Notes under the pieces: model-generated
Database searches by the model: none
What the model saw: the letters and a program-made list of their open reading frames with translations, nothing else
Told to the model about the DNA's origin: nothing
Position numbers and translations under genes: made by a program
NCBI GenBank assembly: GCA_021741585.1
Contig: JAIOXN010000001.1
Coordinates: 609,059-673,058, forward strand
Source of the DNA: Aquiluna sp.
GTDB taxonomy: Bacteria; Actinomycetota; Actinomycetes; Actinomycetales; Microbacteriaceae
Length of the DNA stretch: 64,000 nt
Direction of reading: 5' to 3'
In this document: positions 18,323 to 37,810 of the stretch, piece by piece
Numbering within the stretch: position 1 is the stretch's first letter
Layout: each line of letters starts with the position of its first letter

Positions 18323-19618
18323 ATGGCTACAGCTAAGCGCTACATGGGTTTCGTCAGCCTCGCAGCCGCATCAGGATTAATCCTGTCGGGGTGTGCAGCT
18401 ACGACTGAAACTTCATCAACCAGTTCAGCGTCAAACGGAGGCACAGAAGCCTCTGCAGACCAGAAGGTACTTCAGTTCTGGGCATTCGGCGACATGGGTC
18501 TAGGCGACCTAATCGCTGAGTACGAAGAAATGAACCCAGACATCAAGATCAACATGAAGGTCAGCGACTTTGACCCTCACCACCAGGGTCTATTGACCTC
18601 CCTTGACTCTGCAGCTCCAGACATCGCTGCAATCGAGGTTGGCTACTCATCTTTGTTCAAGGCTGTTGCTGGCAAGTTCACTGACCTTGCAGAGTACGGC
18701 GCAGCTGATGTCGCAGGTGACTACCTCGACTGGCGCTGGAACCACGGTGTTGACCTAGACGGTCGCATTTTCGGTATTCCTACCGATGTGGGCCCAATGA
18801 CCATTTGCTACCGCTCCGACCTATTTGCTGAGGCTGGCTTGCCAACCGACCGCGACGAGGTAAGCGCTCTATGGCCAACCTGGGAAGACTTCATTGCAGT
18901 TGGCGAGCAGTATGTTGCCGCAACTGGAAACAAGTTCCTTTCTTCAACCGGTTACGTATGGAACGCAGTAAAGAACCAGTCCACCGAGAAGTTCTACTCG
19001 GCTGACGGCTCAAGCTTGATCTACGAGACCAACCCACAAATCCAAAAGGCATGGGACCTATCTGTTGCAGCGACTCCAATCGCAGCAAACATTGGTGACT
19101 GGACTGCCGACTGGAACGCTGGTATGAACAACGGCGCTTACGCCGTTCTTACCTGCCCAGCTTGGATGATGGGTTACATCCAGGGTCAGGCTCCTGACCT
19201 TACCGGTGCATGGGATGTTGCAACAATGCCTGAGGGCAGCGGCAACTGGGGTGGCTCACAGCTAACCGTTCCAGCACGTGCACAGTACCCAGAAGAGGCT
19301 GCAAAGTTCATCCTTTGGATCCTTTCTGCAGAGAACCAGTTGAAGCTATTCAAGGCAAGCGGACAGTTCCCATCGACCCTTGCAGCATACGAAGATGCAG
19401 AGCTACTTGCATTTGAGAGCGAGTACTTCAACAACGCTCCAGTTGGATCAATCTACGCAGAGGGTGTCAAGCAGTTGGCTCCAATCTACGAGGGTCCAAA
19501 AGAGCGCGTCATCGACCAGGAGTTCGGTGCAGCACTTGGCCGTATCGCCAATGGCGACCAGTCTGAGGCTGACGCCTGGGCTGAGGCTGTAAACAACATC
19601 AAGCGCGATGTTGGCTAA
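18323..19618 (+). CDS. Sugar ABC transporter substrate-binding lipoprotein (CebE/BglE-like).
   Basis: Lipobox LILSGC; family-1 extracellular solute-binding architecture; 431 aa. Confidence 0.8.
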   Translation: MATAKRYMGFVSLAAASGLILSGCAATTETSSTSSASNGGTEASADQKVLQFWAFGDMGLGDLIAEYEEMNPDIKINMKVSDFDPHHQGLLTSLDSAAPDIAAIEVGYSSLFKAVAGKFTDLAEYGAADVAGDYLDWRWNHGVDLDGRIFGIPTDVGPMTICYRSDLFAEAGLPTDRDEVSALWPTWEDFIAVGEQYVAATGNKFLSSTGYVWNAVKNQSTEKFYSADGSSLIYETNPQIQKAWDLSVAATPIAANIGDWTADWNAGMNNGAYAVLTCPAWMMGYIQGQAPDLTGAWDVATMPEGSGNWGGSQLTVPARAQYPEEAAKFILWILSAENQLKLFKASGQFPSTLAAYEDAELLAFESEYFNNAPVGSIYAEGVKQLAPIYEGPKERVIDQEFGAALGRIANGDQSEADAWAEAVNNIKRDVG

Positions 19619-19633
19619 TAACTAAAAACAAAC

Positions 19634-19669
19634 GCCCCATGGTCCAGGCTCCGGCTTGGGCCATGGGGC
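19634..19669 (+). other. Intercistronic mRNA hairpin between the SBP and permease genes.
   Basis: gccccatggtcca...tgggccatggggc, a 13-bp stem with one G-U. No T-run follows, so it probably acts as a stabiliser or partial attenuator rather than a terminator. Confidence 0.5.
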
Positions 19670-19693
19670 ACCCAACCAGCAAGAGGATTTTCA

Positions 19694-20596
19694 ATGGCTA
19701 CAAACAGTAAGAAGCTTCACCGGGCAGACCGCGTTTCCGGATTTCTCTATACCTCGCCGTTCTTTTTGATATTTGCTGTCTTCGGAATGTTTCCGATCGT
19801 CTACACCTTCTGGGTCGCTTTCCATAAGTGGGACCCGTTCTCCGAACCAAAGTGGATCGGGCTCGATAACTTCACAAACCTCATGGCCGATGACCGGCTT
19901 TGGCTCGCGGTAAAGAACACATTTAGCATCTGGCTGCTCAGCAGCGTCCCGCAGATCATCTTCGCCTTGTTCTTGGCATGGGTGCTAAACCACTCCCGCA
20001 TTCGCGGAAACACTTTCTGGCGCAGCGTTGTGCTGATCCCAAACATCACATCAGTGGTTGCAGTTGCGGTTGTATTCGGACAACTCTTTGGTCGCGAATA
20101 CGGCATGGTCAACTGGCTACTAACAGTTCTAGGCTTCTCCCCAATCGACTGGGTGAATGGAAGCTTTGCATCACACGTTCTTATTTCGATCATGGTTATC
20201 TGGCGCTGGACCGGATATAACGCACTTATTTATTTGGCAGCTATGCAGGCTGTTCCCGAAGAGCTTTATGAAGCAGCAGAGATTGATGGTGCTTCTAAGT
20301 TCCGCCAGTTCATCTCAGTCACCATTCCGCAGATTCGCCCAACCCTGATCTTCACCATCATCGTTAGCACAATCGGTGGATTGCAGATCTTTGCAGAGCC
20401 ACTGATTTTGGATGGCCAAGGCTACGGCGGTGGCGTGAGCCGCCAGTTCAGCACCGTGACACTGTTCATGTTTGAGCAGGGATTCTCGAGATTCGAGTAC
20501 GGCTACGCATCGGCAATCGCGATCGTGCTGACCGTAATCATCATCAGCATCTCGCTTGTCAACTTCCTAATTGTCCGCAAGATTCAGAAGGCGTAA
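19694..20596 (+). CDS. Carbohydrate ABC transporter permease (MalF/CebF type).
   Basis: EAA-like motif ...AAEIDGASKFRQF...; 6 TM helices. Confidence 0.85.
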   Translation: MATNSKKLHRADRVSGFLYTSPFFLIFAVFGMFPIVYTFWVAFHKWDPFSEPKWIGLDNFTNLMADDRLWLAVKNTFSIWLLSSVPQIIFALFLAWVLNHSRIRGNTFWRSVVLIPNITSVVAVAVVFGQLFGREYGMVNWLLTVLGFSPIDWVNGSFASHVLISIMVIWRWTGYNALIYLAAMQAVPEELYEAAEIDGASKFRQFISVTIPQIRPTLIFTIIVSTIGGLQIFAEPLILDGQGYGGGVSRQFSTVTLFMFEQGFSRFEYGYASAIAIVLTVIIISISLVNFLIVRKIQKA

Positions 20597-20598
20597 TC

Positions 20599-21465
20599 AT
20601 GACTGCAATTGAGGCAAACGTTCACAAGGACCAAAGTTCGCTTGGAACCAGGCGAATCAGAGGTCGGCATTACATCCTTCTGGCGGTTGTTGCGCTACTG
20701 TCCTTCTTCCCCTTCTATTGGATGTTTGTAATTTCATCCAATGACTCATCCGCAATCACCAACATCCCGCCGGTTGTGGTTCCAGGACCAAACTTCCTGA
20801 GATCGCTTGGCATGGTCAATGAGATCATCAACTTCTCGGTTCCACTATTGAACAGCTTGTTTGTGGCATCAGTTGTTGCCCTTAGCCAGGTGTTCTTCAG
20901 CACCTTGGCCGGGTTTGCTTTTGCAAAGCTAAGGTTCCGCGGCAAGGGGCCACTGTTCATTTTCATTCTTGCAACGATGACAGTGCCAACCGGATTGGGA
21001 ATCATCCCTTTCTACTTCCTAATGTCGAACCTGGGCCTAATCAACACTTTGGCATCTGTAATCCTCCCGGGCCTAACAACCGCTTTTGGTGTGTTCTGGA
21101 TGCGACAGACCATTGATGGTGGGGTTCCTGACGAACTGATTGAGGCGGCCAAGATTGATGGCGCTTCAAACTTCAGGATCTACCGCTCTATTGTTCTCCC
21201 AGCGATTAGACCTACTGCAACAGTTCTAGGGCTATTTGGGTTCTTGGCTGCTTGGAATGACTTCATGTGGCCACTGTTGAGCTTGAACTCGCCAGAAAAC
21301 TTCACGGTTCAGGTTGCTGTTCGTCAGCTTAGATCCGCATACTTCATTGATTACTCCCTACAAATGACAGGTGCCTTCTTGGCCACTGTGCCATTGTTAA
21401 TCCTGTTCGCTTTGGTAGCCCGCAGAATGGTTGCCGGAGTTATGGCTGGAGCTATCAAGGGATAG
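20599..21465 (+). CDS. Carbohydrate ABC transporter permease (MalG/CebG type).
   Basis: EAAKIDGASNFRIYRSIVLP motif; 6 TM helices. Confidence 0.85.
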   Translation: MTAIEANVHKDQSSLGTRRIRGRHYILLAVVALLSFFPFYWMFVISSNDSSAITNIPPVVVPGPNFLRSLGMVNEIINFSVPLLNSLFVASVVALSQVFFSTLAGFAFAKLRFRGKGPLFIFILATMTVPTGLGIIPFYFLMSNLGLINTLASVILPGLTTAFGVFWMRQTIDGGVPDELIEAAKIDGASNFRIYRSIVLPAIRPTATVLGLFGFLAAWNDFMWPLLSLNSPENFTVQVAVRQLRSAYFIDYSLQMTGAFLATVPLLILFALVARRMVAGVMAGAIKG

Positions 21466-22519
21466 GTGTCAATTGGATCAAAACGGTAAACGCAAGGCAA
21501 GGGCAACCCTGGTCGAAGTAGCCGAACTCGCATTAGTTTCAAAATCCACGGTTTCCCGAGTCATCAACGAGGATGCCGCTGTATCCGAAGAGGCTAGACA
21601 AAGAGTTCTGGATGCTATTAGAGCAACCGGCTATCGCGTTAACCAAAGCGCAAGGGCGCTTGTTTCAAACAAGACTGGCGCCATTGCCGTCGCAATTTAC
21701 GAACAGCTAGCCACCTATTTCACAAGCTCGTTCTCAGGTGCGATGGTTACTGCTCTGCAGGACTTCTTCTTTGAGAGGGACCTTCAGGTTTTGATTCTGC
21801 CTGCGCCTAACCGCGAGCGTCAAAAGCGCATTGAGAAGTACATCTACGAAGGCCACGTCGATGGAGCAATCCTGCTGGGTCCGGTGAGAGAAGACATCTT
21901 GCTCTCTGACCTACTCAGCGCCCAGGTTCCAATTGTTGTGGGTGGTCGCCCAATCGGCTCAGACTCGGTTTCCTATGTTGACATCGATAATGCCAAAGCC
22001 TCAGAGCTGGCTGTTCAAGAACTTATCCGCAGCGGCCGCAAGACAATTGGTTTCATAACCGGGCAGCTCTCAAACGCCTCCGCCACCGACCGCCTCCGAG
22101 GCTACAAGCTCGCAATTGATGGCTCGGATGCTAGGGATGATGAGACTCTAATCGGCATTGCCGACTGGGGCTATGAGTCTGCAGCGATTGCGACCAGAAA
22201 GCTACTCGAGCTGCACCCGGAGCTAGACGCTATTTTCTGCTCCAATGACCTAATGGCCACAGCCGCCATCGCAGTCATCCGAGACTCTGGGAGAAAGATT
22301 CCAGAAGATATTGCCGTTATTGGTTTTGACGATTCGCCAATAGCACTTAGAACCACTCCTCAACTCACCTCGGTGGCACAGAGCCCCGAGGACTATGCCC
22401 GAGCACTTGGGGAGAATCTGCTCAAGCAAATGTCAGGTGAAGATCTAAGTCCGAAACCTGTAATCCTGCCAACACAAATTGTGTGGCGCGACAGCTTCAA
22501 ACCAGAAAATCATAAATAA
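21431..22519 (+). CDS. LacI-family transcriptional regulator (CebR-like). The start is uncertain; an in-frame TTG at 21473 is likely.
   Basis: HTH ATLVEVAELALVSKSTVSRVIN followed by a periplasmic-binding-fold sugar sensor domain. The first 14 codons of the ORF-track model overlap the preceding permease. Confidence 0.8.
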   Translation: MPELWLELSRDRCQLDQNGKRKARATLVEVAELALVSKSTVSRVINEDAAVSEEARQRVLDAIRATGYRVNQSARALVSNKTGAIAVAIYEQLATYFTSSFSGAMVTALQDFFFERDLQVLILPAPNRERQKRIEKYIYEGHVDGAILLGPVREDILLSDLLSAQVPIVVGGRPIGSDSVSYVDIDNAKASELAVQELIRSGRKTIGFITGQLSNASATDRLRGYKLAIDGSDARDDETLIGIADWGYESAAIATRKLLELHPELDAIFCSNDLMATAAIAVIRDSGRKIPEDIAVIGFDDSPIALRTTPQLTSVAQSPEDYARALGENLLKQMSGEDLSPKPVILPTQIVWRDSFKPENHK

Positions 22520-22527
22520 GGAGAGAA

Positions 22528-23910
22528 ATGAAGTTTCCAGAAAATTTCCTATGGGGTTCTGCGACCTCCTCGTATCAAATCGAGGGTGCAGCAACTCAGG
22601 ATGGAAGAGGGCCTAGCATCTGGGACACTTTCTCTCACACTCCAGGCAAGGTAGTCGGTGGTGACACCGGCGACATCGCCATCGATCACTACAACCGCAT
22701 GCCAGAAGATGTCCAAATCATGAAGGACATGGGACTACAGGCATATCGCTTCTCCATCGCATGGTCCAGAATCATGCCAGAGGGCAAAGGTGCGATTGAG
22801 AAGCGCGGACTCGACTTCTACTCACGTCTAACCGATCAGCTCCTAGAGCAAGGCATCAAGCCACTGCCTACTTTGTATCACTGGGACCTCCCAGAAGCTT
22901 TGGACAAAGAAGGTGGCTGGCTCAACAGAGACACAGCCCAACATTTTGCAGATTATTCAGCGGTCGTTTTCGAGACACTTTCGGACCGCATCGACACCTG
23001 GGCAACCCTAAACGAACCTTGGTGTTCCGCATTCTTGGGCTACGGCGCCGGCATCCACGCGCCAGGCCACCAAAACGCTGCAGAGGCTTTCAAGGCTGCT
23101 CACCACTTGCTATTGGGTCATGGAAAAGCGGTTGAGGCAATGCGCTCAATGAAGCCAGAGCACAAGCTTGGAATCGTTCTAAACCTGGCACCGGTTTACC
23201 TGATCGGTGAAGCACCAGCTGATCACCCAGCCCATCAGGCAATCGCGTTGCAGGATGCAATGCTGAATCGACTCTGGCTAAATTCAATTCTTAGCGGTGA
23301 ATACCCAAGCACTTTGCTGGACCTAGGTTCGGTATTTACTTCCTCTGTCCAAGAAGGCGACCTTGCTCAAATCAGTCGCCCATTGGATTGGTTGGGAGTG
23401 AACTACTACCAAGACTCTCGTTCGGTGCCAGATTTCTCGGGCTCCACCTCCGGGTATATCGACAGCACTGGCAACGGCTCAATGCCAGGCTCGCAGGGAG
23501 TAAAGCCAGCACCTGCAGTTGGTGAAATAACTGATTTCGGTTGGTCAACCACCCCAGATGGCTTGCGAGTTCTTTTGGAGTCGCTAGATCAGGACTATGA
23601 AAACATGCCGCCGATCATGATCACCGAAAACGGCTGTGCATACGATGACCCAATGGTTGATGGTGTCATTGACGATAAGCGCAGAATTGCTTACCTAACA
23701 GATCACCTAAAGGCTGTTTCTGAGGCAATCGAGCAGGGCGTTGACGTTCGTGGATACATGCACTGGTCACTCTTTGACAACTTCGAGTGGGCAGAGGGCT
23801 ACAGCAAGCGTTTCGGCCTAATCCACGTTGATTTTGAAACCCAAAAGAGAACCTTGAGAAACTCTGCAAAGTTGTACAGCAAGATCATTCGGAACAATGG
23901 CGATATCTAA
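22528..23910 (+). CDS. bglB: GH1 beta-glucosidase.
   Basis: Catalytic acid/base TLNEPW and nucleophile ITENG; N-terminal FLWGSATSSYQIEGA. Confidence 0.9.
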   Translation: MKFPENFLWGSATSSYQIEGAATQDGRGPSIWDTFSHTPGKVVGGDTGDIAIDHYNRMPEDVQIMKDMGLQAYRFSIAWSRIMPEGKGAIEKRGLDFYSRLTDQLLEQGIKPLPTLYHWDLPEALDKEGGWLNRDTAQHFADYSAVVFETLSDRIDTWATLNEPWCSAFLGYGAGIHAPGHQNAAEAFKAAHHLLLGHGKAVEAMRSMKPEHKLGIVLNLAPVYLIGEAPADHPAHQAIALQDAMLNRLWLNSILSGEYPSTLLDLGSVFTSSVQEGDLAQISRPLDWLGVNYYQDSRSVPDFSGSTSGYIDSTGNGSMPGSQGVKPAPAVGEITDFGWSTTPDGLRVLLESLDQDYENMPPIMITENGCAYDDPMVDGVIDDKRRIAYLTDHLKAVSEAIEQGVDVRGYMHWSLFDNFEWAEGYSKRFGLIHVDFETQKRTLRNSAKLYSKIIRNNGDI

Positions 23911-24808
23911 GCCAATAGCCATTGCAATCAGCATGCTGATTGCTACATCTACCCTCACAGGATGCGCAATGAGCGAACCAACCGATCCAAACTTGCTTTG
24001 GTCTCAAGAATTTGATGGCGAAGCAGGGTCTGCGTTGGACTCAACCTATTGGACTGCTGAGATTGGTGATGGCGGCTCAAAAGGTATTCCAGGCTGGGGC
24101 AACAGTGAGCGCCAGTATTACCTAGAAGAGGCCGCACGCACCGATGGCGAAGGAAACTTGGTCATCACTGCAACCAAGATGCCGGTTTATAGCAAGGACA
24201 ATCCAGATGGGATGCCAACCGAGGAGAATCCATACCTCTGCTATTACCTAACCGCTTGTGAGTGGACCAGTGCCAGAGTTATTACCGAGAACAAACTTTC
24301 CTTTATGTATGGCCGCATGGAAACCAGAATCAAAATGGGTGGCGGCCAAGGAGCATGGCCTGCATTCTGGATGCTCGGCACAAACATCGAGCAGGTCGGT
24401 TGGCCACAAAGCGGCGAAATCGACATCATCGAGTCTCTTGGACGAGACCCAATGACCGCATATGCAACTTTGCATGGGCCTGGATACTTTGCCGGCCAAG
24501 GCTATGGTGCAACCAGCGCTAGGCCGGATGCCCTGGCCGATGATTTCCACGTTTATGCGATCAACTGGAAACCTGACTACATCGAGTGGGAAATCGATGG
24601 CGAGGTTTTCCACACCGCCACGCCTGAGGATGTAGCTCCCAATGAATGGGTCTACAACCAACCGTTTTACCTCTTGATGAACCTGGCAATGGGCGGTGGC
24701 TTTGGTGGAAACATCGATCCAAAACTTGAGTCTTCACAAATGTCAGTTGATTACATCAGGTACTCAAAATACGAAGGCTTTGGGGAAATTTCCGAGACCT
24801 CGGAGTAA
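23897..24808 (+). CDS. GH16 beta-1,3(-1,4)-glucanase (laminarinase-type) lipoprotein.
   Basis: Lipobox LTGC; GH16 catalytic motif GEIDIIE (ExDxxE). Confidence 0.8.
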   Translation: MAISKPIAIAISMLIATSTLTGCAMSEPTDPNLLWSQEFDGEAGSALDSTYWTAEIGDGGSKGIPGWGNSERQYYLEEAARTDGEGNLVITATKMPVYSKDNPDGMPTEENPYLCYYLTACEWTSARVITENKLSFMYGRMETRIKMGGGQGAWPAFWMLGTNIEQVGWPQSGEIDIIESLGRDPMTAYATLHGPGYFAGQGYGATSARPDALADDFHVYAINWKPDYIEWEIDGEVFHTATPEDVAPNEWVYNQPFYLLMNLAMGGGFGGNIDPKLESSQMSVDYIRYSKYEGFGEISETSE

Positions 24809-24833: not shown

Positions 24834-25277
24834 TCAGGCCAGCTTCAGAGCAATCATCACTTGCCCACCACCAGAGCTGATTTGAGTAGCGAACGAGAGC
24901 TCTGGTGCAAGGCGGGTAAGTCTGTCCAATAGCCAATCCGAGGCCTTATCTGCATCGTTTTGGTCTGGGCAGCGCGCAATGATTTCCCTGCCGCCTTTAT
25001 TGCGAAGTCGCTCTACCGTTTCAAAAATTGGAGATGGGTCAACAACAAGCAAGTCACTCCCCCATGGAACAACCGGGGAGATTTTGCCCTTCATTGTGTT
25101 GCACTGGCGATGAGCTAAACGCTCAACAAAGGCAGCGCCCTTCTTGACCCTGATTGCTCCGTAGCTATCAACACTTGGGCCAAGGTCGTTGTTCACAGAC
25201 ATGTCTGGATCGACGCTTTTATCGCATAACCAACAGGTCCAATTGTCTTGGGTTCCAACTTCGTTCAAATCGCTCAT
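24834..25277 (-). CDS. Hypothetical protein with a degenerate HNH-like zinc-finger core.
   Basis: CWLC ... HRQCNTMKG (a CxxC plus the HxxCNxxKG ending typical of HNH nucleases); 147 aa. No canonical DH dyad. Confidence 0.35.
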   Translation of the reverse strand: MSDLNEVGTQDNWTCWLCDKSVDPDMSVNNDLGPSVDSYGAIRVKKGAAFVERLAHRQCNTMKGKISPVVPWGSDLLVVDPSPIFETVERLRNKGGREIIARCPDQNDADKASDWLLDRLTRLAPELSFATQISSGGGQVMIALKLA

Positions 25278-25357: not shown

Positions 25358-26215
25358 ATGAGTGCGATTTTGGTGGAAAACCTCAGAAAAACCTACGGGA
25401 AATCAGACGCAGTCTCTGAGGTCTCTTTTGATGTTCAACAGGGTGAGACTTTTGTGTTGCTTGGACCAAATGGCGCTGGAAAGTCAACAACCATTGAAAT
25501 TCTTGAAGGACTCAGAGTTAGAACTTCGGGGGATGTCAGAGTTCTTGGCCATGATCCGCAGCAGCTTAGCCGCGACTTCAAGTCACGCATCGGAATCGTT
25601 CAGCAATCCGCCGGTGACCTGGGAAGGCTTTCGGTTCGAGACATAGTCACTCACTTTGCCTCGCTCTATCCAAACCCAAGATCAATTGACGAGGTAATCG
25701 CTGCAGTTGGCCTCGAGGGCAAAGCATCCGAGCCTGTCAAGAAGCTCTCTGGTGGCCAGGCCCACCGAGTCGATGTCGCACTTGGCTTGATTGGCAATCC
25801 AGAGGTTCTATTTCTGGATGAGCCGACAACTGGCTTCGACCCTGAAGTTCGCAGAGCATTTTGGGAGGTAATACGTGGCCTCCAGAACGAGGGGATGACA
25901 ATCATGCTCACCACTCATTACCTAGATGAAGCAGAAGAACTAGGGCATCGTGGTGGCGTGATAGTAGACGGCAAGCTAGTAGCCCTTGGAAACATTGAAG
26001 AACTTGGCGGGAAAGAATCCAGAACCCCGGTTGTGACATGGACCGAAAACGGTGAGGAACAGAACCACAAAACCACAAGCCCAGCCTGGTTTATCGGCGA
26101 ACTTTCTCAAAGACTCCAGGCTGAGCCTCAAAACCTCCAAATCCGGGTTCCATCTCTTGAAACCGTATATCTCGAACTTGTGAATCAGCACAGAGGGGCA
26201 AACCATGCAGACTAA
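25358..26215 (+). CDS. ABC transporter ATP-binding protein (ABC-2/DrrA-like).
   Basis: Walker A GPNGAGKST, signature LSGGQ, Walker B LFLDEPT. Confidence 0.85.
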   Translation: MSAILVENLRKTYGKSDAVSEVSFDVQQGETFVLLGPNGAGKSTTIEILEGLRVRTSGDVRVLGHDPQQLSRDFKSRIGIVQQSAGDLGRLSVRDIVTHFASLYPNPRSIDEVIAAVGLEGKASEPVKKLSGGQAHRVDVALGLIGNPEVLFLDEPTTGFDPEVRRAFWEVIRGLQNEGMTIMLTTHYLDEAEELGHRGGVIVDGKLVALGNIEELGGKESRTPVVTWTENGEEQNHKTTSPAWFIGELSQRLQAEPQNLQIRVPSLETVYLELVNQHRGANHAD

Positions 26216-27072: not shown

Positions 27073-28464
27073 ATGTTCCCAAAGGATTTCACCTGGGGTG
27101 TTGCAACCTCTAGCTACCAAATTGAGGGTGCCGCATATGAAGACGGCAAAGGCAAGTCGATCTGGGACACATTCTGTGAAGAGCCCGGCCGAGTAAACAA
27201 CAGCGATAACGGCTTAGTGGCAAACGATCACTATCACCGCTACCCCGAAGATGTCGCCCTAATGAAGTCAGTTGGTGCGAAGGCCTATCGATTCTCAATC
27301 TCTTGGCCAAGACTTTTCCCAAACGGAGACCAGGTCCGCGAAGAGCGTGGGTTTGCCTTCTATCACAAGCTCCTTGATGAGCTTGATGCGGCTGGCATTG
27401 AGCCAGTGCTAACCCTCTACCACTGGGATCTGCCTCAAGCACTGCAAGATAAAGGCGGCTGGGCAAACCGAGACATCGTCAAGGCTTTCGAGTATTACGC
27501 TCAAGAAGTTGCCAAGGAATTTGGAGCCAGAGTAAAGCGATTCTCCCCAATCAATGAACCTTGGGTTGTTTCATGGCTTGGCTACGGAATGGGAGTCCAT
27601 GCTCCTGGAATTCAAGATATCGGCCAAGCTGTTGCCGCCTCTCACCACACGGTTATGGCACACAATGCAGCTCTGAGGGCAATCAAGTCGATCGCGCCAA
27701 CCGCACTGGTTGGTCCAGTTTTGAATCAGGCCATGCCAGATGTTGACGACGTATTTGATCCTGAGCAGATGCAAGCTGCAAAAGTGATGGATGCTCAGCA
27801 AAACCTGTTCTGGATGGAAGGAATCTTCCGTGGCGAGTACCCGCAACTGATTTGGGATATCTATGGAGACCACCTAAAGAAGGTAGTTCAGCCTGGAGAT
27901 CTTGATGTGGCTGAAAATGACTGGCTTGGAATCAATTTCTATTTCAATTCTCGCATTGGGCACAAGGTTCCAAAGGACCACTTCTCAAGGGCACGAGTGA
28001 TTGACCAGCTTATGGATTACGCAGTTGAAGGCCAATCAATGGGTCCACTGACAGACATGGGCTGGCCAGTAACGCCATATGGCATCGGTGACCTGCTTGT
28101 TCGCTGGACCAGGGAATACGGCGCACAAGTGCCACAGATGTTTATCACCGAGAACGGTTGCGCCTATGAGGTTGGGCCGGATACATCAGGCCAGGTTCAC
28201 GACACCGATCGAATTTCTTACCTCAATGACCACCTTTTGAGCGTTGCAGATGCAATTGCACGAGGTGCAGATGTTGGTGGATATTTCCAGTGGTCGTTGA
28301 TGGACAACTTTGAGTGGGCCGAAGGCTACTCAAAGCGCTTTGGAATTGTCTATGTGGACTTTGATACCCAGGAGAGAATTCCAAAGGAATCTGCGAAGTT
28401 CTACTCGAAAGTTATCGAAACTCAGGGTGCGAATCTCACAAGGAGACAAACCCTAGTTTCCTAG
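27073..28464 (+). CDS. GH1 beta-glucosidase, second paralog.
   Basis: FTWGVATSSYQIEGAA; INEPW; ITENGCAY. Confidence 0.9.
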   Translation: MFPKDFTWGVATSSYQIEGAAYEDGKGKSIWDTFCEEPGRVNNSDNGLVANDHYHRYPEDVALMKSVGAKAYRFSISWPRLFPNGDQVREERGFAFYHKLLDELDAAGIEPVLTLYHWDLPQALQDKGGWANRDIVKAFEYYAQEVAKEFGARVKRFSPINEPWVVSWLGYGMGVHAPGIQDIGQAVAASHHTVMAHNAALRAIKSIAPTALVGPVLNQAMPDVDDVFDPEQMQAAKVMDAQQNLFWMEGIFRGEYPQLIWDIYGDHLKKVVQPGDLDVAENDWLGINFYFNSRIGHKVPKDHFSRARVIDQLMDYAVEGQSMGPLTDMGWPVTPYGIGDLLVRWTREYGAQVPQMFITENGCAYEVGPDTSGQVHDTDRISYLNDHLLSVADAIARGADVGGYFQWSLMDNFEWAEGYSKRFGIVYVDFDTQERIPKESAKFYSKVIETQGANLTRRQTLVS

Positions 28465-28890
28465 TTGGGAAATAATCTTTTCGATTCTGGATTGCTTGGT
28501 TGCTGAGGCTTTGGCCTCAGTCACCTGCCTTGCAATTTCTTTGCGCTTTGAATAGCTAAGAGACTCGAAGGTTTCTTTCACCCCGGCACCAATAAGTGCG
28601 GTGATTAGATCTTGAGGCATGTCAACTTCGCGTCGTCCCACTTCTAATTCAAGGTAAACCTCGACCTCGTCACCAGCTTCAACCCCGGCCTGGTCACGGT
28701 TTGCTCTTGGAAATACGACGTGACACTCGCCATTTACACCAGTTGCGGTGCTTTGGTAGGTATGACCGTTTATTGTCACCTTTAGCGCTGCGCGCCGATT
28801 AGCACCTAATTCAGCCAAGACCTCGTCTGGAATATGCAGCGAGGCGTGAGGGCCATTGCCCACTACAACCGTCAGGTAACTAACGCCCAT
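28453..28890 (-). CDS. DUF1905 / YdeI-OmpD-associated family protein.
   Basis: 145 aa; N-terminal beta-rich DUF1905-like region and C-terminal KRKEIARQV...RIEKII helix typical of YdeI-like proteins. Confidence 0.45.
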   Translation of the reverse strand: MGVSYLTVVVGNGPHASLHIPDEVLAELGANRRAALKVTINGHTYQSTATGVNGECHVVFPRANRDQAGVEAGDEVEVYLELEVGRREVDMPQDLITALIGAGVKETFESLSYSKRKEIARQVTEAKASATKQSRIEKIISQLGN

Positions 28891-28924: not shown

Positions 28925-29728
28925 TTAGCTAACAATCGCCGGAATGATCGCTCCGGAGAATACCTGCCAGGCAAGCAATGACTTAGCCACCAAGCTCAAG
29001 GTGATATAGGTCTTTTCTCCAAACAGGTAGTTCTTCCATGGGCCGACCTTTTTGTACTGGAAGGCCTGGTTGAAGGCGAAGGTATTGAAGAAAATGAAGA
29101 TTGCAATCACGATGCCATAGACAAAGCCAGGAATCTCAGCGGCGCTAGAGCTGCCAGGCTGGATTATGTAGACCGCAAGAATCAACCAAGGGACAATTCC
29201 GGTGATGGAACCCATGATGAATGGAAGACCCTTACCGTTTCCTGGTGTCTCATATTTTTCTTGCAGTGCACCAAAGAAAATCATCGATGCGTTCACGCCA
29301 AAGATTGCAACTAGGGCTGCAAAGTTAGAAACACCATTTAGCTGTGCGATCAGCCAGATCATCACTGAGGATGACAACGAGTACTCAACCCAGCGGAAGT
29401 AATTGTGGTTCTGCTTGAGTCCTGCTTTGTATCGCCCAAAGAACATTGGGGAGGAAATGATGAAGTGGAACAGGGCAGATAGTGCCAAAAACCCAACGAC
29501 ACCGGCACCGATGTTGATGTCAAAGAGCTCGACTCGCTCAGGAGGAATCGGCACACCCGGAGGGCCCGCTGGATACTCAATGGTTACCGGGAAAAGAATC
29601 TGGTTATCAAGCAGGGTCAGAACATATGTCAGACCAAGTGCTTGGGCAAGGTGAAGAAATCCTGCCACCACGTTGTATCTGCGAAGACCCTTGATTTGAG
29701 TATCTATATCTTTTACGCGTCTGGCCAT
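28925..29728 (-). CDS. Heliorhodopsin: 7-TM retinal-binding protein with inverted topology.
   Basis: 267 aa, 7 TM helices. Matches HeR hallmarks: FLHLAQ (His in TM1), ALFHFI (His in TM2), FRWVEYSLSSSVM (Glu counterion in TM3), IFGVNASM, PGFVYGI, and SLVAKSLLAWQVFSG (Schiff-base Lys in TM7). Collinear with the 48C12 prototype. Confidence 0.9.
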   Translation of the reverse strand: MARRVKDIDTQIKGLRRYNVVAGFLHLAQALGLTYVLTLLDNQILFPVTIEYPAGPPGVPIPPERVELFDINIGAGVVGFLALSALFHFIISSPMFFGRYKAGLKQNHNYFRWVEYSLSSSVMIWLIAQLNGVSNFAALVAIFGVNASMIFFGALQEKYETPGNGKGLPFIMGSITGIVPWLILAVYIIQPGSSSAAEIPGFVYGIVIAIFIFFNTFAFNQAFQYKKVGPWKNYLFGEKTYITLSLVAKSLLAWQVFSGAIIPAIVS

Positions 29729-29785
29729 GAGCCACCCCTTTGTCGTTACCTTATGCCTGAACCTATCAGTAGATAGATTTCTTCC

Positions 29786-31285
29786 TTAGTTTTGTGGGAA
29801 CCCTAGGTTGAGCCCACCGTGACTTGGGTCAAGCCAACGAGACGTAATCACCTTGGTCTGAGTGAAGAATCGGAATCCTTCTTCACCGTGAGCGCGAGAA
29901 TCACCGAACAGCGAGTGCTTCCAACCACCGAAGCTGAAGTATGCAACCGGCACAGGAATTGGAACGTTGATGCCGATCATTCCAACTTCTACCTCGTGCT
30001 GGAACTTTCTGGCTGCACCACCATCGTTGGTGAAGATTGCGGTGCCGTTTCCGAACTCACCTGAGTTGATTAGCTGCAAACCCTCCTCATAAGAGTTCAC
30101 GCGGATAACGGAAAGAACTGGGCCAAAGATTTCTTCTTTGTAGACCTTTGAACTCAATGGCACTCTGTCAATAAGAGTTGGTCCAAGCCAAAACCCCCTT
30201 GGATCACCATCTGGCACAACGCCGCGACCATCAACCACAACACTTGCGCCATCTTGTTCCGCCGCAGCGATGTAGGACTGCACTTTGTCTCGGTGAACCT
30301 GTGTCACCAATGGACCCATGTCACAAGAGCGACGGCCATCTCCAACCTTGATCTGAGCCATCCGGCTGGAGATCTTCTCAATAAGCGAATCTGCAACTGG
30401 CTCAACAGCCACAACAACTGAGATGGCCATGCAGCGCTCACCAGCAGAACCAAAACCTGCATTGACGGCTGAATCTGCTACCAAATCAAGATCAGCATCT
30501 GGCAACACGAGCATGTGGTTCTTGGCACCACCCAGAGCCTGAACGCGTTTTCCATGCTTCGCTGCGGTCTCATAAATGTATTGCGCGATAGGTGTCGAAC
30601 CGACAAATGAGATTGAAGCAACATCCGGGTGAGTCAAAAGCCCGTCTACCGCTTCTTTATCGCCCTGCAGAACGTTGAATATGCCGTCGGGAAGGCCGGC
30701 TTCTTTCCAGAGCTGAGCCATCCAAATAGCCGCTGATGGATCCTTCTCGCTTGGCTTTAGCACAACTGCATTGCCGGCCGCAATTGCGACTGGGAAGAAC
30801 CACATTGGAACCATGGCCGGGAAGTTGAATGGGCTGATAATTCCAACAACACCAAGAGGTTGCTTGATGGAGTAGACATCAACATTCGTTGATGCATTCT
30901 CGGAATATTCACCCTTCAATAGATGCGGCATGCCGCAGGCAAATTCGACAACCTCTTGACCACGGGTGATCTCGCCCAAGGCATCGGAAAGCACCTTGCC
31001 GTGCTCTCGAGTAATGATCTCCGCTAGTTCACCTTTGCGGGAATCGAGCAGCTCCCGGAATTTGAAAATAATTGCCTGGCGCCGTGCAAGTGTGGTGTCG
31101 CGCCAAGCTGGAAAGGCGGCCTTTGCACTCGCAATTGTCTTTGCGATTTCTGCCTGGTCGGCAAAACCAACTTTGGCAATTACTTCACCAAGGGCTGGGT
31201 TGAATACTTCACCAAATCGACCGGATGCGCTTTCAATTTCAGCGCCATTTGTCCAATGTCCAACAACGTCCATGTTGTAAACCAA
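29786..31285 (-). CDS. mmsA: CoA-acylating methylmalonate-semialdehyde dehydrogenase.
   Basis: ALDH-superfamily catalytic Cys region (ERCMAIS) and Glu (VVLKPSEKDP); the overall N-terminus matches MmsA. Confidence 0.8.
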   Translation of the reverse strand: MVYNMDVVGHWTNGAEIESASGRFGEVFNPALGEVIAKVGFADQAEIAKTIASAKAAFPAWRDTTLARRQAIIFKFRELLDSRKGELAEIITREHGKVLSDALGEITRGQEVVEFACGMPHLLKGEYSENASTNVDVYSIKQPLGVVGIISPFNFPAMVPMWFFPVAIAAGNAVVLKPSEKDPSAAIWMAQLWKEAGLPDGIFNVLQGDKEAVDGLLTHPDVASISFVGSTPIAQYIYETAAKHGKRVQALGGAKNHMLVLPDADLDLVADSAVNAGFGSAGERCMAISVVVAVEPVADSLIEKISSRMAQIKVGDGRRSCDMGPLVTQVHRDKVQSYIAAAEQDGASVVVDGRGVVPDGDPRGFWLGPTLIDRVPLSSKVYKEEIFGPVLSVIRVNSYEEGLQLINSGEFGNGTAIFTNDGGAARKFQHEVEVGMIGINVPIPVPVAYFSFGGWKHSLFGDSRAHGEEGFRFFTQTKVITSRWLDPSHGGLNLGFPQN

Positions 31286-31514: not shown

Positions 31515-32486
31515 TTAGCTGTAGAGGGTTCCGGTGTTTACTACTGGAGACGCCTCTCGCTCAGATACGAGCACTACAAGTAGGTTGCTAACCATGGATG
31601 CTCTCTTGTCCTCATCCAAGACGATGTTGCTGCTCTTTTCTAGATCATTTAGCGCCATTTCAACCATGCCAACAGCACCCTGAACAATCTTGCGCCTGGC
31701 AGAGATAATTGCATCTGCTTGCTGACGCCTCAGCATCGCCTGAGCAATTTCAGGAGCATAGGCAAGGTGGGTTAGACGAGCATCTTCAATAACAACTCCA
31801 GCAACCGCAAGCCTTCTTGATAGATCTACGCGAAGCTCGTTTGAAACTTCCTCAGGGTTTCCACGAAGAGTCAGCTCTTCGGAGAGCTCACCTGAGTCGG
31901 AGTGGTCATATGGGAACTGGGTTGCAACGTGGCGAAGTGATGTTTCCAATTGGGTCTTCACGTAGTTGCGGTAATCATCAACTTCAAACACAGCCTTAGC
32001 GGTGTCAGAAACCTTCCAAACCACAACCGACGCAATCTCAATTGGATTACCTTTGCGATCATTCACCTTGATGGTGTCACCAACCTCGGTGCGCGCGCGC
32101 AAGGAAATCTTGTATCGAGCATCGGTTTTCTTGATAGTGGTGCCGGTTTCCTTGGCTTTCTTGAACTTCTCCTCTTGAGGAGTTGGAGTCGGTGTGCCGT
32201 TTGAATACAGTGGGTTAGCCCAGTGCAAACCGGCCTTCTTGATGGTTCCGCGGTACTTTCCAAACAGGATCAAGACTCTTGCCTCGTTTGGCTGCAAAGA
32301 GAAGAAGCCACCATACAGAATCGTCACCAGGGTGAAGACAGCCACAGGCAAGAACACCATTAGTGATTCTTCGCCAGATTCGCGAACCACACTGAAGAAC
32401 CAGAAGCCGGTTGCTATTTCAATTGCGGTTAGGACAAAAAACATGAGTGCGCCGTTGAGAACGCGTGCTTCTTTTTCGTTAGTCAA
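31515..32486 (-). CDS. SPFH/band-7 (stomatin/flotillin-like) membrane protein.
   Basis: Two N-terminal TM helices, then an SPFH domain (VLILFGKYRGTIKKAGLHWANPL...) and a C-terminal coiled-coil. Confidence 0.75.
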   Translation of the reverse strand: MTNEKEARVLNGALMFFVLTAIEIATGFWFFSVVRESGEESLMVFLPVAVFTLVTILYGGFFSLQPNEARVLILFGKYRGTIKKAGLHWANPLYSNGTPTPTPQEEKFKKAKETGTTIKKTDARYKISLRARTEVGDTIKVNDRKGNPIEIASVVVWKVSDTAKAVFEVDDYRNYVKTQLETSLRHVATQFPYDHSDSGELSEELTLRGNPEEVSNELRVDLSRRLAVAGVVIEDARLTHLAYAPEIAQAMLRRQQADAIISARRKIVQGAVGMVEMALNDLEKSSNIVLDEDKRASMVSNLLVVLVSEREASPVVNTGTLYS

Positions 32487-33390: not shown

Positions 33391-34671
33391 CTACCAGTTC
33401 TCTAGGTCTGAATAAAGTGGGATGTTCTCGGTGAGAACGCGGACTCTTGCTCGCAGTGCTGGAAGGTCAGCACCTGGAATCAGAGCACCGGCGATGATGT
33501 CGGCAACTTCCTTGAATTCCTCAGCACCAAAACCACGGGTTGCGAGCGCCGCAGCACCAATTCGAACACCGGAGGTGACCATAGGTGGGCGTGGGTCGTT
33601 TGGAACTGAGTTCTTGTTTACAGTTACACCGGCTTCGTGAAGCAGGTTCTCGGCAGTCTGACCGTCAATTGCGGCGTTGCGAAGATCCACCAAAACCAGG
33701 TGAACGTCAGTTCCGCCGGTTAGCACGCTGATACCTGCGTCAACCACGTCCTTCTGTACTAGGCGTTCAGCGATGATGCGTGCGCCTTCGATTGTGCGAG
33801 CCTGGCGCTCTTTGAAATCTGGCTGCATCGCAGCCTTGAATGCAACTGCCTTTGCGGCAATCACATGCATAAGTGGGCCACCCTGCTGACCTGGGAATAC
33901 AGCAGAATCAATCTTCTTGGCGTATTCCTGCTTGCACAGAATCAAACCGGAACGAGGGCCACCAAGAGTTTTGTGAACTGTTGTAGAAACGACATCTGCA
34001 TATGGGACTGGGCTTGGGTGCAAACCTGCTGCAACCAATCCTGCGAAGTGAGCCATGTCAACCCAAAGCTTTGCTCCAACCTCATCCGCAATTTTGCGGA
34101 ACTCTGCAAAGTCAAGGTGACGGGAATATGCAGACCAACCTGCGATCAAAACAGTTGGCTTCACCTCGTGAGCTCTTTGGCGCACGATGTCCATGTCAAT
34201 CAAAAAAGTCTCTGGGTTCAGCTCATAAGCGTGAGCCTCATACATCTTGCCCGAGAAGTTGAGTTTCATACCGTGGGTTAGGTGTCCACCGTGAGCCAAT
34301 GACAGACCAAGAAGTCTGTCGCCTGGGTTAGCAAGGGCCATCATCACGGCAGCATTTGCTGTCGCGCCAGAGTGTGGTTGGACGTTTGCGTGCTCAGCAC
34401 CAAAGAGTTCTTTTGCTCGCTCGCGGGCAAGCTCCTCTGCGACGTCGACTGCTTCGCAACCGCCGTAGTAGCGCTTGCCGGGATAGCCCTCAGCATATTT
34501 ATTGGTCAGCACAGATCCCTGCGCCTCTAGAACGCCGCGCGAGACAAAGTTCTCGCTGGCGATCATCTCGAGAGTGTGGCGCTGGCGGTCTAGCTCCTGC
34601 TGCAGCACCGCTGCAATCTCAGGATCAACCTCGGACAGGGGCGCATTAAAGCTCTTTGGCTGTGTGGACAT
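33391..34671 (-). CDS. glyA: Serine hydroxymethyltransferase.
   Basis: PLP-Lys motif [13 protein letters not shown]; 426 aa. Confidence 0.9.
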
Positions 34672-34731: not shown

Positions 34732-35589
34732 ATGACTTTGACCAAAGAGCACTGGGTTCTCACATTTGTTTGCCCAGATAAAAAAGGTATTGTCCACGCC
34801 ATCACAGGTGCGGTTGTGGAAATTGGCGGGAACATCACCGAGAGCAAGCAATACACCTCTTTGGACACCGGTCGCTTCTTCATGAGATTGCAGATCGAGG
34901 CGGAAATCACCAAGGAAGCCTTTGGCCAACAGTTTGAACAGATCGCCAAAGACTTTGAAATGGAATATGTGCTCGACCACGTCGAGCGCAAAATGAAGAC
35001 CTTGGTCTTAGTATCCAAGGCTGGGCACGCTCTAAACGATTTACTTTTCCGCCAGCGAGCAGGGCAGCTTCCAATCGAAATCCCAATGGTTTTTGCTAAT
35101 CACCCGGAACTCAAAGAGCTCACCAATTTCTTTGGAGTCCCTTTTGAGAGTCATGAGATCAAGAACAATGTGGACAAGGCGCTTTTTGAAAAACGACTTC
35201 GTGAGTTCATCCACGAGAACCAGATTGAGCTAATTGTTCTGGCCCGCTACATGCAGATTCTCTCCCCTGAGTTCTGCAAAGAATTTGCCGGCAAAATCAT
35301 CAACATCCACCACAGCTTCTTGCCTGGATTCAAAGGCGCTAACCCATATGCACAGGCTCACGCCAGAGGTGTGAAGCTCATTGGTGCCACCGCTCACTTT
35401 GTAACCGAGGATCTCGATGAGGGACCAATCATCGAACAAAACGTCACCCGAGTTGAGCACTCGGAATCAAAGAGCCAATTAGTTTCAATTGGACAGGACG
35501 CGGAGTCCAAAACCCTGACCCAGGCGGTCAAATGGTTCGCCGAACACCGCGTCCTGCTTGATGGTCAAAGAACCATCATTTTCCGCTAA
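34732..35589 (+). CDS. purU: Formyltetrahydrofolate deformylase.
   Basis: N-terminal ACT domain plus formyltransferase core (INIHHSFLP, HFVTEDLDEGPII). Confidence 0.85.
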   Translation: MTLTKEHWVLTFVCPDKKGIVHAITGAVVEIGGNITESKQYTSLDTGRFFMRLQIEAEITKEAFGQQFEQIAKDFEMEYVLDHVERKMKTLVLVSKAGHALNDLLFRQRAGQLPIEIPMVFANHPELKELTNFFGVPFESHEIKNNVDKALFEKRLREFIHENQIELIVLARYMQILSPEFCKEFAGKIINIHHSFLPGFKGANPYAQAHARGVKLIGATAHFVTEDLDEGPIIEQNVTRVEHSESKSQLVSIGQDAESKTLTQAVKWFAEHRVLLDGQRTIIFR

Positions 35590-37810
35590 AGCGCCACAGA
35601 CCAAGCCCAATCAACAGAGCTAGAAATGCCGCAAAAATCCATAATGGGTTGAACATCACTGAATCTTGACTTTGGATAGTTTCGGCCCGAGGTTCGGGAT
35701 CGTTGATGGCAACTACCGTGATCGGCTCGGCCGTTGGTGCCGTGTTTTCTTCGAGAGTCAATGGTTCTGCACTTTGCGCATCATTAGGCTCTTGAGTTGT
35801 TTCTTCGAGAACTTTCGACTCGCGAATCGCAGTTGGAGCAGTAAGGCTAGGGGTTCGGGCTGGGTCTGACTCTTTTTGAACTTCGCTAGCGACTTCGTTG
35901 ACAACCTGTTCTAGCACTTCCTCAAGAATGGCTTCAGGGGTGGTTTCTTGGATTTGAGTTTCTTCCTCGATCACCGGATCTGCTGGAACAAAATCTGATG
36001 AGGAGTCGGGAATTGTTGGAGCAGGAGACCAAACTTCTTCTTGGACGGGATCCTCGGGCTCAGAAATCTCTGGCTGAACCGGATCTTGAACAACGATTTC
36101 ATCGACTTCAGGCTCAAGGGGCTCTTCGACGAGTAGTTCCAAATTCTCGATTTGAAGACTAGCGATGGAATTGGGTCCAGGATTGCCAGCCGCATCGGTG
36201 GCAAGGCTCTGATCAAAATTCCAGATTGCTGTGCCATAGCCGCAGCTAGCAAAAAATTTCCACACAGATGCTTCTACTTCTTCGTATTGAGAATCGCAGG
36301 CTTCGCTGAAATCAAAAACCACATCAGCTGGATTGAAGTCGACCACTTCTGAGAAACTCAAAACCGCGCTGTATAGAAATGCGTCTTCAACTGTCACAGA
36401 CTCTTGACTCCAAGAAGCAGATGGTCCGATCGTGTCAGTTGTGAATCCGAAAACTAGATCTAGTTCAGGGCCCATATTTCCGAGGCTGTCTGATATCGAG
36501 TTCGCGGCTAGGGTCAACAAGTGTTCGCCCTCGAAGCAGTCCGAAACAACAATTGTGCTTGCAAGTTCCCCGAACTCGATTCCCCCGCAATTAGAAATAG
36601 AGAATGCCGTGAGATCTGGATTGACAAGACTTCCGTCGATTGCGAAACCGATTTCGACACTATTCTTACTAAACAATTCTTGACTTGAAACAAATTCAAA
36701 TGTGGGTGCCGTCAAATCGATATCCAATGACGCAACCGAATTTGACTGAGGCCCGAAAAAGGCATCCCCCAGAGAAAGCGCCAATAGTGTGACCTCAACC
36801 GGGGTGGAATTGCAATTCACCACGTCAATTTCAGCCTGAGTCCCGAGCATTCTTATCTCACCAATCTCACAACCCGTGCCAGATAATGTGATGTCGGCAT
36901 CGCTCAAGCCAGTGATTTCAGAACTCATCGACAATTCAAAGGTCAATTTATCGCTTTGCACCTGTGTTCCAGAAAACCCCAAAACTTGAAGGGGAAGTTG
37001 ATATCTCAAAACCAGATAGCCGTTACCGGTCTGGACCCCTTGGGTGTGAACAGGTGAAGTTACATAGTCGTTTCTTGCATAGCTGGAACCGCCACCGCCG
37101 CCACCGCCGTCGGAACAGCAGTCATCATCATCGGCACCGCCACCGCCACCGCCGTACCAACCGCCGCCGCCACCGCCACCGCCTGCATTCCAGCTAGTTC
37201 CTCCCGACCCGCCTTGCGCAAAAGAGCCGCTGGCTGGAGACGTGCCGCCATTGGAATAGCCTGCGGAACCTCCGTTGGATTGGGTTCCTGCACCACCGCC
37301 TGAACCCTGCCCGGATTTCCCAGCCTCGGCAACTAGGCCTCCGCCTGATCCACCCATGGCTCCTGAATATCCTCCGGTGCCTCCACCGCCACCGGCCACC
37401 GCGATCCTCGAGTTAGTCGCGGAGTTCAAACGAATATCTGTGGCACCGCCACCGGCACCTTCGTTTCCACGATTACCACCCGAAGCGCCACCACCGTTGT
37501 ATCCACCAGGAGCAGATGCTGCCACCGAACCTGCGCCACCAACAACGATGATGAGCTGTTCGGGGAGATTGGTTAGGACTCCAGTGAGCTTGCCGCCGAG
37601 ACCACCTCTACCACCACTGGCACCAAAAGCTTCAAATTCAATTTCCTGAACTCCAGGAGGAACTTCAAATACAACATGGCTGCCTGAGAATTCAAAAGTT
37701 GCTTCACAAATCCCTTGCGTGCAGACCTCAGCAGCTGAAGCAGAATGGGCGATGAGCATGGCCGATAAAAGCGCAGAACTGGCTGCAAACGAAATAAGTT
37801 TATTTTTCAT
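35576..37810 (-). CDS. Large secreted glycine-rich/acidic surface protein with a C-terminal membrane anchor.
   Basis: Signal peptide MKNKLISFAASSALLSAMLIAHSASA. About 190-aa GGxGG-rich region containing a DDDDCC run. Beta-rich middle. Pro/Glu/Asp-rich linker. Terminal hydrophobic helix plus RFSGK tail with no LPXTG. Confidence 0.6.
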   Translation of the reverse strand: MKNKLISFAASSALLSAMLIAHSASAAEVCTQGICEATFEFSGSHVVFEVPPGVQEIEFEAFGASGGRGGLGGKLTGVLTNLPEQLIIVVGGAGSVAASAPGGYNGGGASGGNRGNEGAGGGATDIRLNSATNSRIAVAGGGGGTGGYSGAMGGSGGGLVAEAGKSGQGSGGGAGTQSNGGSAGYSNGGTSPASGSFAQGGSGGTSWNAGGGGGGGGWYGGGGGGADDDDCCSDGGGGGGGSSYARNDYVTSPVHTQGVQTGNGYLVLRYQLPLQVLGFSGTQVQSDKLTFELSMSSEITGLSDADITLSGTGCEIGEIRMLGTQAEIDVVNCNSTPVEVTLLALSLGDAFFGPQSNSVASLDIDLTAPTFEFVSSQELFSKNSVEIGFAIDGSLVNPDLTAFSISNCGGIEFGELASTIVVSDCFEGEHLLTLAANSISDSLGNMGPELDLVFGFTTDTIGPSASWSQESVTVEDAFLYSAVLSFSEVVDFNPADVVFDFSEACDSQYEEVEASVWKFFASCGYGTAIWNFDQSLATDAAGNPGPNSIASLQIENLELLVEEPLEPEVDEIVVQDPVQPEISEPEDPVQEEVWSPAPTIPDSSSDFVPADPVIEEETQIQETTPEAILEEVLEQVVNEVASEVQKESDPARTPSLTAPTAIRESKVLEETTQEPNDAQSAEPLTLEENTAPTAEPITVVAINDPEPRAETIQSQDSVMFNPLWIFAAFLALLIGLGLWRFSGK

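Follow-up and report, generated by a model that had tools for sequence, protein, structure and literature searches.

The 64-kb stretch of Aquiluna DNA considered here, referred to as the window, carries on its minus strand a heliorhodopsin (HeR) gene that lies between mmsA, on its upstream side, and a small gene with DUF1905 and OmdA/YdeI-like domains, on its downstream side (Table 1). The gene is very probably an intact, expressed-looking chromosomal heliorhodopsin gene of an Aquiluna sp. (Microbacteriaceae, Actinomycetota), a freshwater/estuarine bacterium, and belongs to the subfamily of the prototype 48C12; its product most likely serves as a photosensor or regulator. Known since 2018, the family is represented by Pfam and NCBIfam models and by several solved structures. 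An earlier interpretation made from the letters alone (the sequence-only reading) had called the gene a heliorhodopsin, collinear with 48C12 and bearing all the hallmark residues. That call is upheld by hidden Markov model profiles, residue mapping, predicted fold, topology and purifying selection, and the two flanking genes and the gap upstream of HeR are as it described them.

Table 1. Features of the heliorhodopsin locus and of the window (nt, nucleotides; aa, amino acids; TM, transmembrane helix; positions are those of the window)
Feature	Position	Strand	Basis or remark
Heliorhodopsin (HeR) coding sequence, 267 aa + stop	28925..29728	minus	ATG-to-stop open reading frame, profile matches, identical NCBI protein
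Lys249, retinal Schiff-base lysine, TM7 (48C12 K241)	codon AAG 28982..28984	minus	HMMER alignment to 6su3
Ser245, TM7 (48C12 S237)	codon AGC 28994..28996	minus	HMMER alignment to 6su3
Glu115, Schiff-base counterion, TM3 (48C12 E107)	codon GAG 29384..29386	minus	HMMER alignment to 6su3
His88, TM2 (48C12 H80)	codon CAC 29465..29467	minus	HMMER alignment to 6su3
His26, TM1 (48C12 H23)	codon CAC 29651..29653	minus	HMMER alignment to 6su3
DUF1905 + OmdA/YdeI-like gene, 145 aa, downstream of HeR	28453..28890	minus	Pfam PF13376 + PF08922
Intergenic gap, mmsA stop to HeR start, 57 nt	29729..29785	minus	
Ribosome-binding site GGGGTGG	29732..29738	minus	3 nt before ATG; read from sequence
Candidate actinobacterial -10 box TAAGGT (TANNNT)	29748..29753	minus	25 nt before ATG, CAGGCA ahead; function inferred
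Palindrome CTATC-TACT-GATAG over expected -35 zone	29763..29776	minus	only hairpin in fold of gap
mmsA, CoA-acylating methylmalonate-semialdehyde dehydrogenase, upstream of HeR	29786..31285	minus	TIGR01722, 689 bits vs cutoff 448.5
Half-size ABC exporter pair, 601 + 591 aa (ABC_membrane + ABC_tran)	40578..44155	minus	

The HeR protein is covered by two family profiles over almost their whole length. The Pfam search that the sequence-only reading had suggested as a check gives PF18761 (Heliorhodopsin) at 318 bits (cutoff 26.7, E 4.8e-95, profile positions 1-241 of 242), a full-length match, while the NCBIfam equivalog NF038020, “heliorhodopsin HeR”, scores 343.4 bits against a cutoff of 100 (E 7.1e-103, positions 1-244 of 244). 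In the Pfam scan no other profile, the type-1 rhodopsin family PF01036 included, matches at E <= 0.01. All six matches in a sequence search of the PDB are heliorhodopsins, the best of them being 48C12 (E 5.5e-84), and more than 7,500 homologues are found at E <= 1e-20. Seven hydrophobic segments are detected in the protein, and its reading frame is intact and of full length relative to thousands of homologues. Relatives of the protein are 66-86% identical to it. Against relatives, the ratio of nonsynonymous to synonymous substitution rates (dN/dS) is 0.07-0.12, with synonymous sites almost saturated; the gene is therefore under strong purifying selection.

In the HMMER alignment to 6su3, the protein is 57.8% identical to 48C12 over 251 aligned residues. 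The motifs that the sequence-only reading had picked out are where it put them: FLHLAQ at residue 24, ALFHFI at residue 85, RWVEYSLSSSVM at residue 112 and SLVAKSLLAWQ at residue 245. The TM7 lysine, whose absence would have spoken against the family, is present as K249, the equivalent of K241 in 48C12. H26, H88, E115, S245 and K249 are invariant when the protein is aligned with 26 relatives, and 11 of 12 further positions around the Schiff base, chosen from the 48C12 sequence, are identical. Of the six subfamily-1 markers that Cho et al. cite, four are shared, namely I150, E157, P180 and Q221.

The AlphaFold model of the protein (predicted local distance difference test score, pLDDT, 77.5; predicted template-modelling score, pTM, 0.77) has helices at 8-39, 73-105, 110-130, 136-159, 168-189, 201-225 and 234-266, and two strands, 45-52 and 64-72, which form a beta-hairpin between helices 1 and 2. 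When the model is compared with the PDB by Foldseek, the top ten structures are all heliorhodopsins, 6su4, 6su3, 6uh3 and 6is6 among them, with template-modelling scores (TM-scores) of 0.83-0.91 and a root-mean-square deviation (rmsd) of about 2 Å. The N-terminus and loops 2-3, 4-5 and 6-7 together contain 16 lysine and arginine residues, the other loops only one. By the positive-inside rule, a cytoplasmic N-terminus is therefore predicted computationally, which is the inverted topology of the family and the orientation that the sequence-only reading had expected. The alternatives at this level would be that the protein is a type-1 rhodopsin or some other protein of seven helices, or that the gene is a decaying pseudogene. 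Type-1 structures are only distant fold matches to the model (best E about 7e-4, TM-scores 0.5-0.6, 12-14% identity), at E values near 1e-3 where heliorhodopsins reach 1e-20 and TM-scores of 0.9, and the type-1 Pfam models have no match at the threshold given above. The full-length frame and a dN/dS of about 0.1 speak against decay. These readings have next to no probability and are excluded; membership of the heliorhodopsin family is unambiguous on the sequence, on the hallmark residues and on the predictions of fold and N-in topology.

The protein is also already known. A sequence identical over 267 of 267 residues is deposited at NCBI as MCF8545929.1, “heliorhodopsin HeR [Aquiluna sp.]”, from a metagenome-assembled genome (MAG), and the heliorhodopsins of the genus were surveyed in print in 2025. 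The expectation of the sequence-only reading that an automated pipeline would call the gene a hypothetical membrane protein does not hold, since the NCBIfam equivalog exists and the identical protein bears the heliorhodopsin name; the label hypothetical is confined to older JGI annotations of homologues. The value of the gene as a discovery is thus small, the family being known and the exact protein already labelled. A modest value lies in the analysis of its context, which presents a subfamily-1 heliorhodopsin that has no conserved neighbour in 80 related genomes and usually has a -10-type element of its own. In the published survey of the Luna-1 group (ISME Commun 2025; PMC12422013), HeR is reported for 96% of the Aquiluna genomes from salt water, 57% of those from fresh water and 60% of Rhodoluna genomes, as a rule accompanied by an actinorhodopsin; transcripts of both rhodopsin types are present in situ, some Aquiluna genomes hold two heliorhodopsin copies, and the retinal-forming gene blh is found in only 22% of Aquiluna genomes. 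Heliorhodopsins are restricted to monoderms (PMC8612252), and both the identical protein and the closest loci come from Aquiluna or other Microbacteriaceae (Actinomycetota).

HeR, mmsA and the ydeI-like gene run in the same direction, and the gap between HeR and the ydeI-like gene is 34 nt. A scan with E. coli-type promoter and terminator models finds no terminator on either side of HeR. RNA folding of the 57-nt and 34-nt gaps is no better than that of shuffled sequences (z 0.41 for the 57-nt gap), and the 34-nt gap contains no stable hairpin. With no terminator and so short a gap, the ydeI-like gene may therefore share the HeR transcript. As a separate matter, the mmsA reading frame as listed begins at TTG (31271..31285, minus); its true start is probably the ATG at 31273..31271, because the orthologue in the closest related locus (L081, a metagenomic contig whose HeR is 86% identical) begins at the residue aligned with Met5. 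On the other side, the second of two GH1 genes in the window runs towards the ydeI-like gene and shares 12 nt with its 3' end. An SPFH/Band-7 (flotillin-like) gene (31515..32486, minus) lies two genes upstream of HeR. Flotillin-associated rhodopsins have been described in SAR11 (PMC10308929); a functional link by analogy was considered here and rejected, the Band-7 gene being a singleton in the comparison described below, and its nearness to HeR is probably coincidental.

The surroundings of HeR were compared across the 80 best genomic loci (Aquiluna, Rhodoluna, Cryobacterium and other Micrococcales) and the window, 81 loci in all, by tblastn of the window neighbours and by de novo clustering of all open reading frames (ORFs) within 3.5 kb of HeR. 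Neither approach gives a conserved operon partner, as no neighbour family occurs in more than 17 of the 81 loci. The commonest is an MMPL transporter; next come a DUF1801/DUF5655-like protein (16 loci), a PGPGW membrane protein (15), DUF4870 (11) and DoxX (11). The ydeI-like, Band-7 and folD genes of the window are singletons, and the exact order mmsA-HeR-ydeI-like is absent from all 80 species representatives. Only L081 shares the co-directional adjacency of an aldehyde dehydrogenase gene to HeR, with a gap of 54 nt; its gene downstream of HeR is a different one, and other near relatives have yet other gene contexts. Window homologues of the PGPGW, DUF4870 and c15 genes, which flank HeR in relatives, sit 3.6-12 kb from HeR. 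The region is thus homologous across relatives, though heavily rearranged; it is a stretch of ordinary housekeeping genes. Two contigs of one MAG (Aquiluna sp. LE_2052; loci L031 and L034) each carry a HeR gene in a near-identical context, which may mean a second copy or a bin of mixed strains. Because some Aquiluna genomes hold two copies, part of the variation may reflect paralogous positions. So fluid a neighbourhood agrees with the published view that most actinobacterial HeR genes are transcribed alone, only 18.8% of them being predicted to be co-transcribed with a neighbour.

Two of the displaced families can be described further. The c15 cluster is a 147-aa protein, for which no Pfam or NCBIfam match was found, encoded near HeR in five Aquiluna loci (L005, L008, L009, L010 and L019). 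Where it lies upstream, it is parted from HeR only by the small PGPGW gene, and in L019 it lies directly downstream; the window copy (24834..25277, minus) is 3.6 kb from HeR, beyond GH1 and ABC-2 genes. The PGPGW-family small membrane protein of the window (16461..16721, minus) is 74% identical, by tblastn, to its counterpart beside HeR in 15 related loci, and a 125-aa ORF that overlaps its gene (16531..16908, plus) has no family match and is probably spurious.

This comparison bears on the suggestion that HeR modulates what a co-directional neighbour encodes, be it the YdeI-like protein or MmsA, as the heliorhodopsin AbHeR does with glutamine synthetase. The published cases of regulation do concern operon neighbours, the three genes lie on one strand with gaps of 57 and 34 nt and no terminator found, and L081 repeats the order of an aldehyde dehydrogenase gene followed by HeR. 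Against this, the ydeI-like gene stands beside HeR in none of the 80 other loci, and mmsA comes within 5 kb (2-5 kb away) in only 12, with other genes between and, with one exception, on the opposite strand. The ten recurrent neighbour groups published by Cho et al. contain neither family, and none of those groups, which include glutamine synthetase, photolyase and an ABC exporter, adjoins the Aquiluna gene. Modulation of a neighbour's product is therefore very unlikely, and a partner of HeR should not be deduced from the adjacent gene, be it mmsA or the ydeI-like gene.

The sequence-only reading had also given HeR a promoter gap of its own. A scan of the 57-nt gap against the E. coli-type consensus finds no promoter. 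In actinobacterial sigma-A promoters the -10 consensus is TANNNT, and one such hexamer lies in the gap (Table 1). When the 100 nt upstream of HeR are compared in 65 non-redundant loci, with shuffled sequences as control, 58 of the 65 have a TANNNT hexamer, in most cases TAGnnT, that begins 18-42 nt ahead of the HeR start (shuffles: mean 17.4, maximum 26), and it is kept whatever the upstream gene. An unbiased expectation-maximisation search of the same regions returns GGCCTAGTCTGA with a log-likelihood of 154.6, against 31-44 for shuffles, and an AAGGAGG-like element occupies the equivalent place of the ribosome-binding site in nearly all related loci. The conserved hexamer can be read as a -10 box, after which comes a short leader that carries a ribosome-binding site of the AAGGAGG type, so that HeR genes would usually have their own promoter. 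A special light-response or regulatory site was considered and rejected, since hexamers of the same type precede many other, unrelated genes in the window; the motif is a generic housekeeping -10 box. The palindrome over the expected -35 zone is not conserved in L081, and it was rejected as a terminator because the gap folds no better than shuffles.

For the window copy itself the case is weakened by two observations. About 27% of shuffled sequences have a hexamer in range, so that the lone TAAGGT could be there by chance; and in L081, with the same mmsA-HeR adjacency, the box is absent from a gap that is not homologous to that of the window, which lowers the promoter claim. Read-through from mmsA into HeR is accordingly possible. 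A promoter of its own for this copy is plausible and modestly supported, and the earlier claim stands at the level of the family and only modestly for the window.

A further view joins these observations, holding that the HeR genes of Aquiluna and Rhodoluna are self-contained cassettes of promoter, ribosome-binding site and gene, reshuffled within a plastic stretch of about 15 kb and with no dedicated operon partner, and that the cassette of the window is newly paired with a co-transcribed ydeI-like gene. It is quite unlikely as a whole; if true, it would argue that this HeR subfamily acts autonomously or on a global target and not on an enzyme encoded next to it.

Leaderless mRNAs are common in Actinobacteria, and six genes of the window have a TANNNT hexamer only 12-13 nt before their start, which leaves no room for a ribosome-binding site: 24834..25277 (minus), 25358..26215 (plus), 33391..34671 (minus), 34732..35589 (plus), 35576..37810 (minus) and 39169..40581 (plus). 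This spacing suggests that their mRNAs are leaderless.

The most likely role of the Aquiluna protein, by analogy with its characterised relatives, is that of a slow-cycling, non-pumping photosensor or regulator whose partner is encoded elsewhere in the genome, a role to which somewhat better than even confidence is attached. As in 48C12 and other bacterial HeRs, all-trans retinal would be bound to Lys249 as a protonated Schiff base, balanced by Glu115, and would be isomerised by green light of about 550 nm. The Schiff-base proton would then pass to an acceptor group inside the protein, of which His26 and His88 are part; as the proton would not leave the protein, no ions would be pumped. A long-lived photointermediate would reshape the lysine- and arginine-rich cytoplasmic loops, and these would modulate one or more partner proteins encoded elsewhere, so that the protein would serve as a photosensor or regulator and not as an energy transducer. 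Transcription would probably start from the housekeeping-type promoter in the 57-nt gap and may continue into the ydeI-like gene, while retinal would probably be imported from the environment or made by genes outside the window. Bacterial HeRs have been shown to act as sensors or regulators together with glutamine synthetase (PMC9529153), with photolyase and with an ABC exporter (PMC11109279), and the same role is assumed for the Luna-1 proteins (PMC12422013). The statement of the sequence-only reading that the physiological role of the family is still unsettled is thus out of date in part, partner-specific regulatory functions having been published since 2022.

Light-driven or light-gated ion transport, as in the viral heliorhodopsin V2HeR3, would be a different function. 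Proton transport has been shown for a viral heliorhodopsin (PMC9448325), but bacterial heliorhodopsins are described in the literature as being without ion-pumping activity, and the transporting viral proteins belong to another subfamily, which according to a preprint lacks the carotenoid site. The Aquiluna protein is 58% identical to 48C12 and shares with it the subfamily-1 markers I150, E157, P180 and Q221, and a transporter is highly improbable.

Several points weigh against the photosensor role. The photochemistry just outlined is extrapolated from 48C12, which is 58% identical. Among the window ORFs scanned with Pfam and NCBIfam, there is no glutamine synthetase, photolyase, histidine kinase or MerR gene, and no retinal-synthesis gene is found there. 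Heterodimeric ABC exporters are of a class shown to be light-modulated by a heliorhodopsin in Ornithinimicrobium, and the only such pair in the window lies 11 kb from HeR. Finally, a 2025 preprint (Kornilov et al.) argues that most HeRs are light harvesters with a carotenoid antenna and not sensors. In that proposal, an external xanthophyll at the lateral opening near the retinal ring serves as antenna to a two-chromophore light harvester, a function that could also be added to a sensor role. The Aquiluna sequence has every residue that the preprint asks for, F170 and F214 (F162 and F206 in 48C12), Gly177 (G169), S174 and A218 (positions 166 and 210) and Asn215 (N207), and would thus be predicted to have the site; F170, G177, F214 and N215 are invariant in the alignment with 26 relatives, and according to the literature Luna-1 bacteria make carotenoids. 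However, the preprint is not peer-reviewed and argues from structure comparison and docking. As it assigns the site to 91% of heliorhodopsins, having it is unspecific, and this HeR subfamily is not known to have an energy-conserving output such as ion transport. Light harvesting is rather unlikely to be the function, and the photosensor or regulator is preferred.

The rest of the window is ordinary chromosome, with a uniform GC fraction of about 0.50 and no anomaly at HeR. Its genes include those for acetyl-CoA synthetase, a class A penicillin-binding protein, asd/ask, recR, dnaX, folD, glyA, purU, icd, purH, purN, sucCD, a UvrD/PcrA-type helicase, guaA, a mannitol-type phosphotransferase system and IMPDH-family proteins, as well as signal recognition particle (SRP) RNA and tRNA-Ser. 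The scan of the window ORFs with Pfam and NCBIfam finds no type-1 rhodopsin or carotenoid gene and, as noted, none for retinal synthesis. The small SRP RNA (Rfam RF00169, 54.6 bits; 13777..13873, minus) lies just upstream of dnaX and recR (11051..13419, minus), so that the order ffs-dnaX-recR is the classical one, and tRNA-Ser(GGA) is at 14781..14868 (plus). A beta-glucan/beta-glucoside utilisation cluster (18323..24808 and 27073..28464, both plus) comprises a sugar ABC importer with a binding protein and two permeases, a LacI regulator, two GH1 beta-glucosidases and a GH16 glucanase. A 744-aa protein (35576..37810, minus) matches PF12810, the ALK/LTK glycine-rich domain (E 2.8e-20), which is chiefly familiar from the receptor tyrosine kinases of animals; no Pfam match covers the remainder of this protein.

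One of the closest known systems is 48C12 (PDB 6SU3/6SU4/6UH3), the prototype of the family, which comes from an actinobacterial fosmid of Lake Kinneret. Its H23, H80, E107, S237 and K241 are identical in the Aquiluna protein (H26, H88, E115, S245 and K249), as are its subfamily-1 markers I142, E149, P172 and Q213, and the predicted Aquiluna fold superimposes on it with TM-scores of 0.87-0.91 and an rmsd of about 2 Å. The Aquiluna protein differs in being eight residues longer up to TM3, with three extra residues in the N-terminal tail and five spread over the end of helix 1 and the first extracellular loop, and in the substitutions T176 for A168, I210 for L202, S174 for C166 and F151 for L143. 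The host genus and the gene neighbourhood are also different.

AbHeR of Actinobacteria bacterium IMCC26103 (PMC9529153), which binds and activates glutamine synthetase, is likewise a member of subfamily 1 with positively charged cytoplasmic loops 2-3 and 6-7, and offers protein-protein contact as a candidate mode of action for the Aquiluna protein. Its operon holds a glutamine synthetase gene and an NAD+ synthetase gene, whereas neither is found in the Aquiluna window. OcHeR pairs with the heterodimeric ABC exporter OmrDE (PMC11109279), and the window likewise encodes a pair of half-transporters; unlike the OcHeR case, these genes do not share an operon with HeR, many unrelated genes lying between, and an exporter of the OmrDE kind is absent from the families that recur beside HeR in the annotated related loci. 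The Luna-1 HeRs of Aquiluna and Rhodoluna (PMC12422013) are of the same genus and the same protein family as the HeR of the window, from which they differ in nothing essential.

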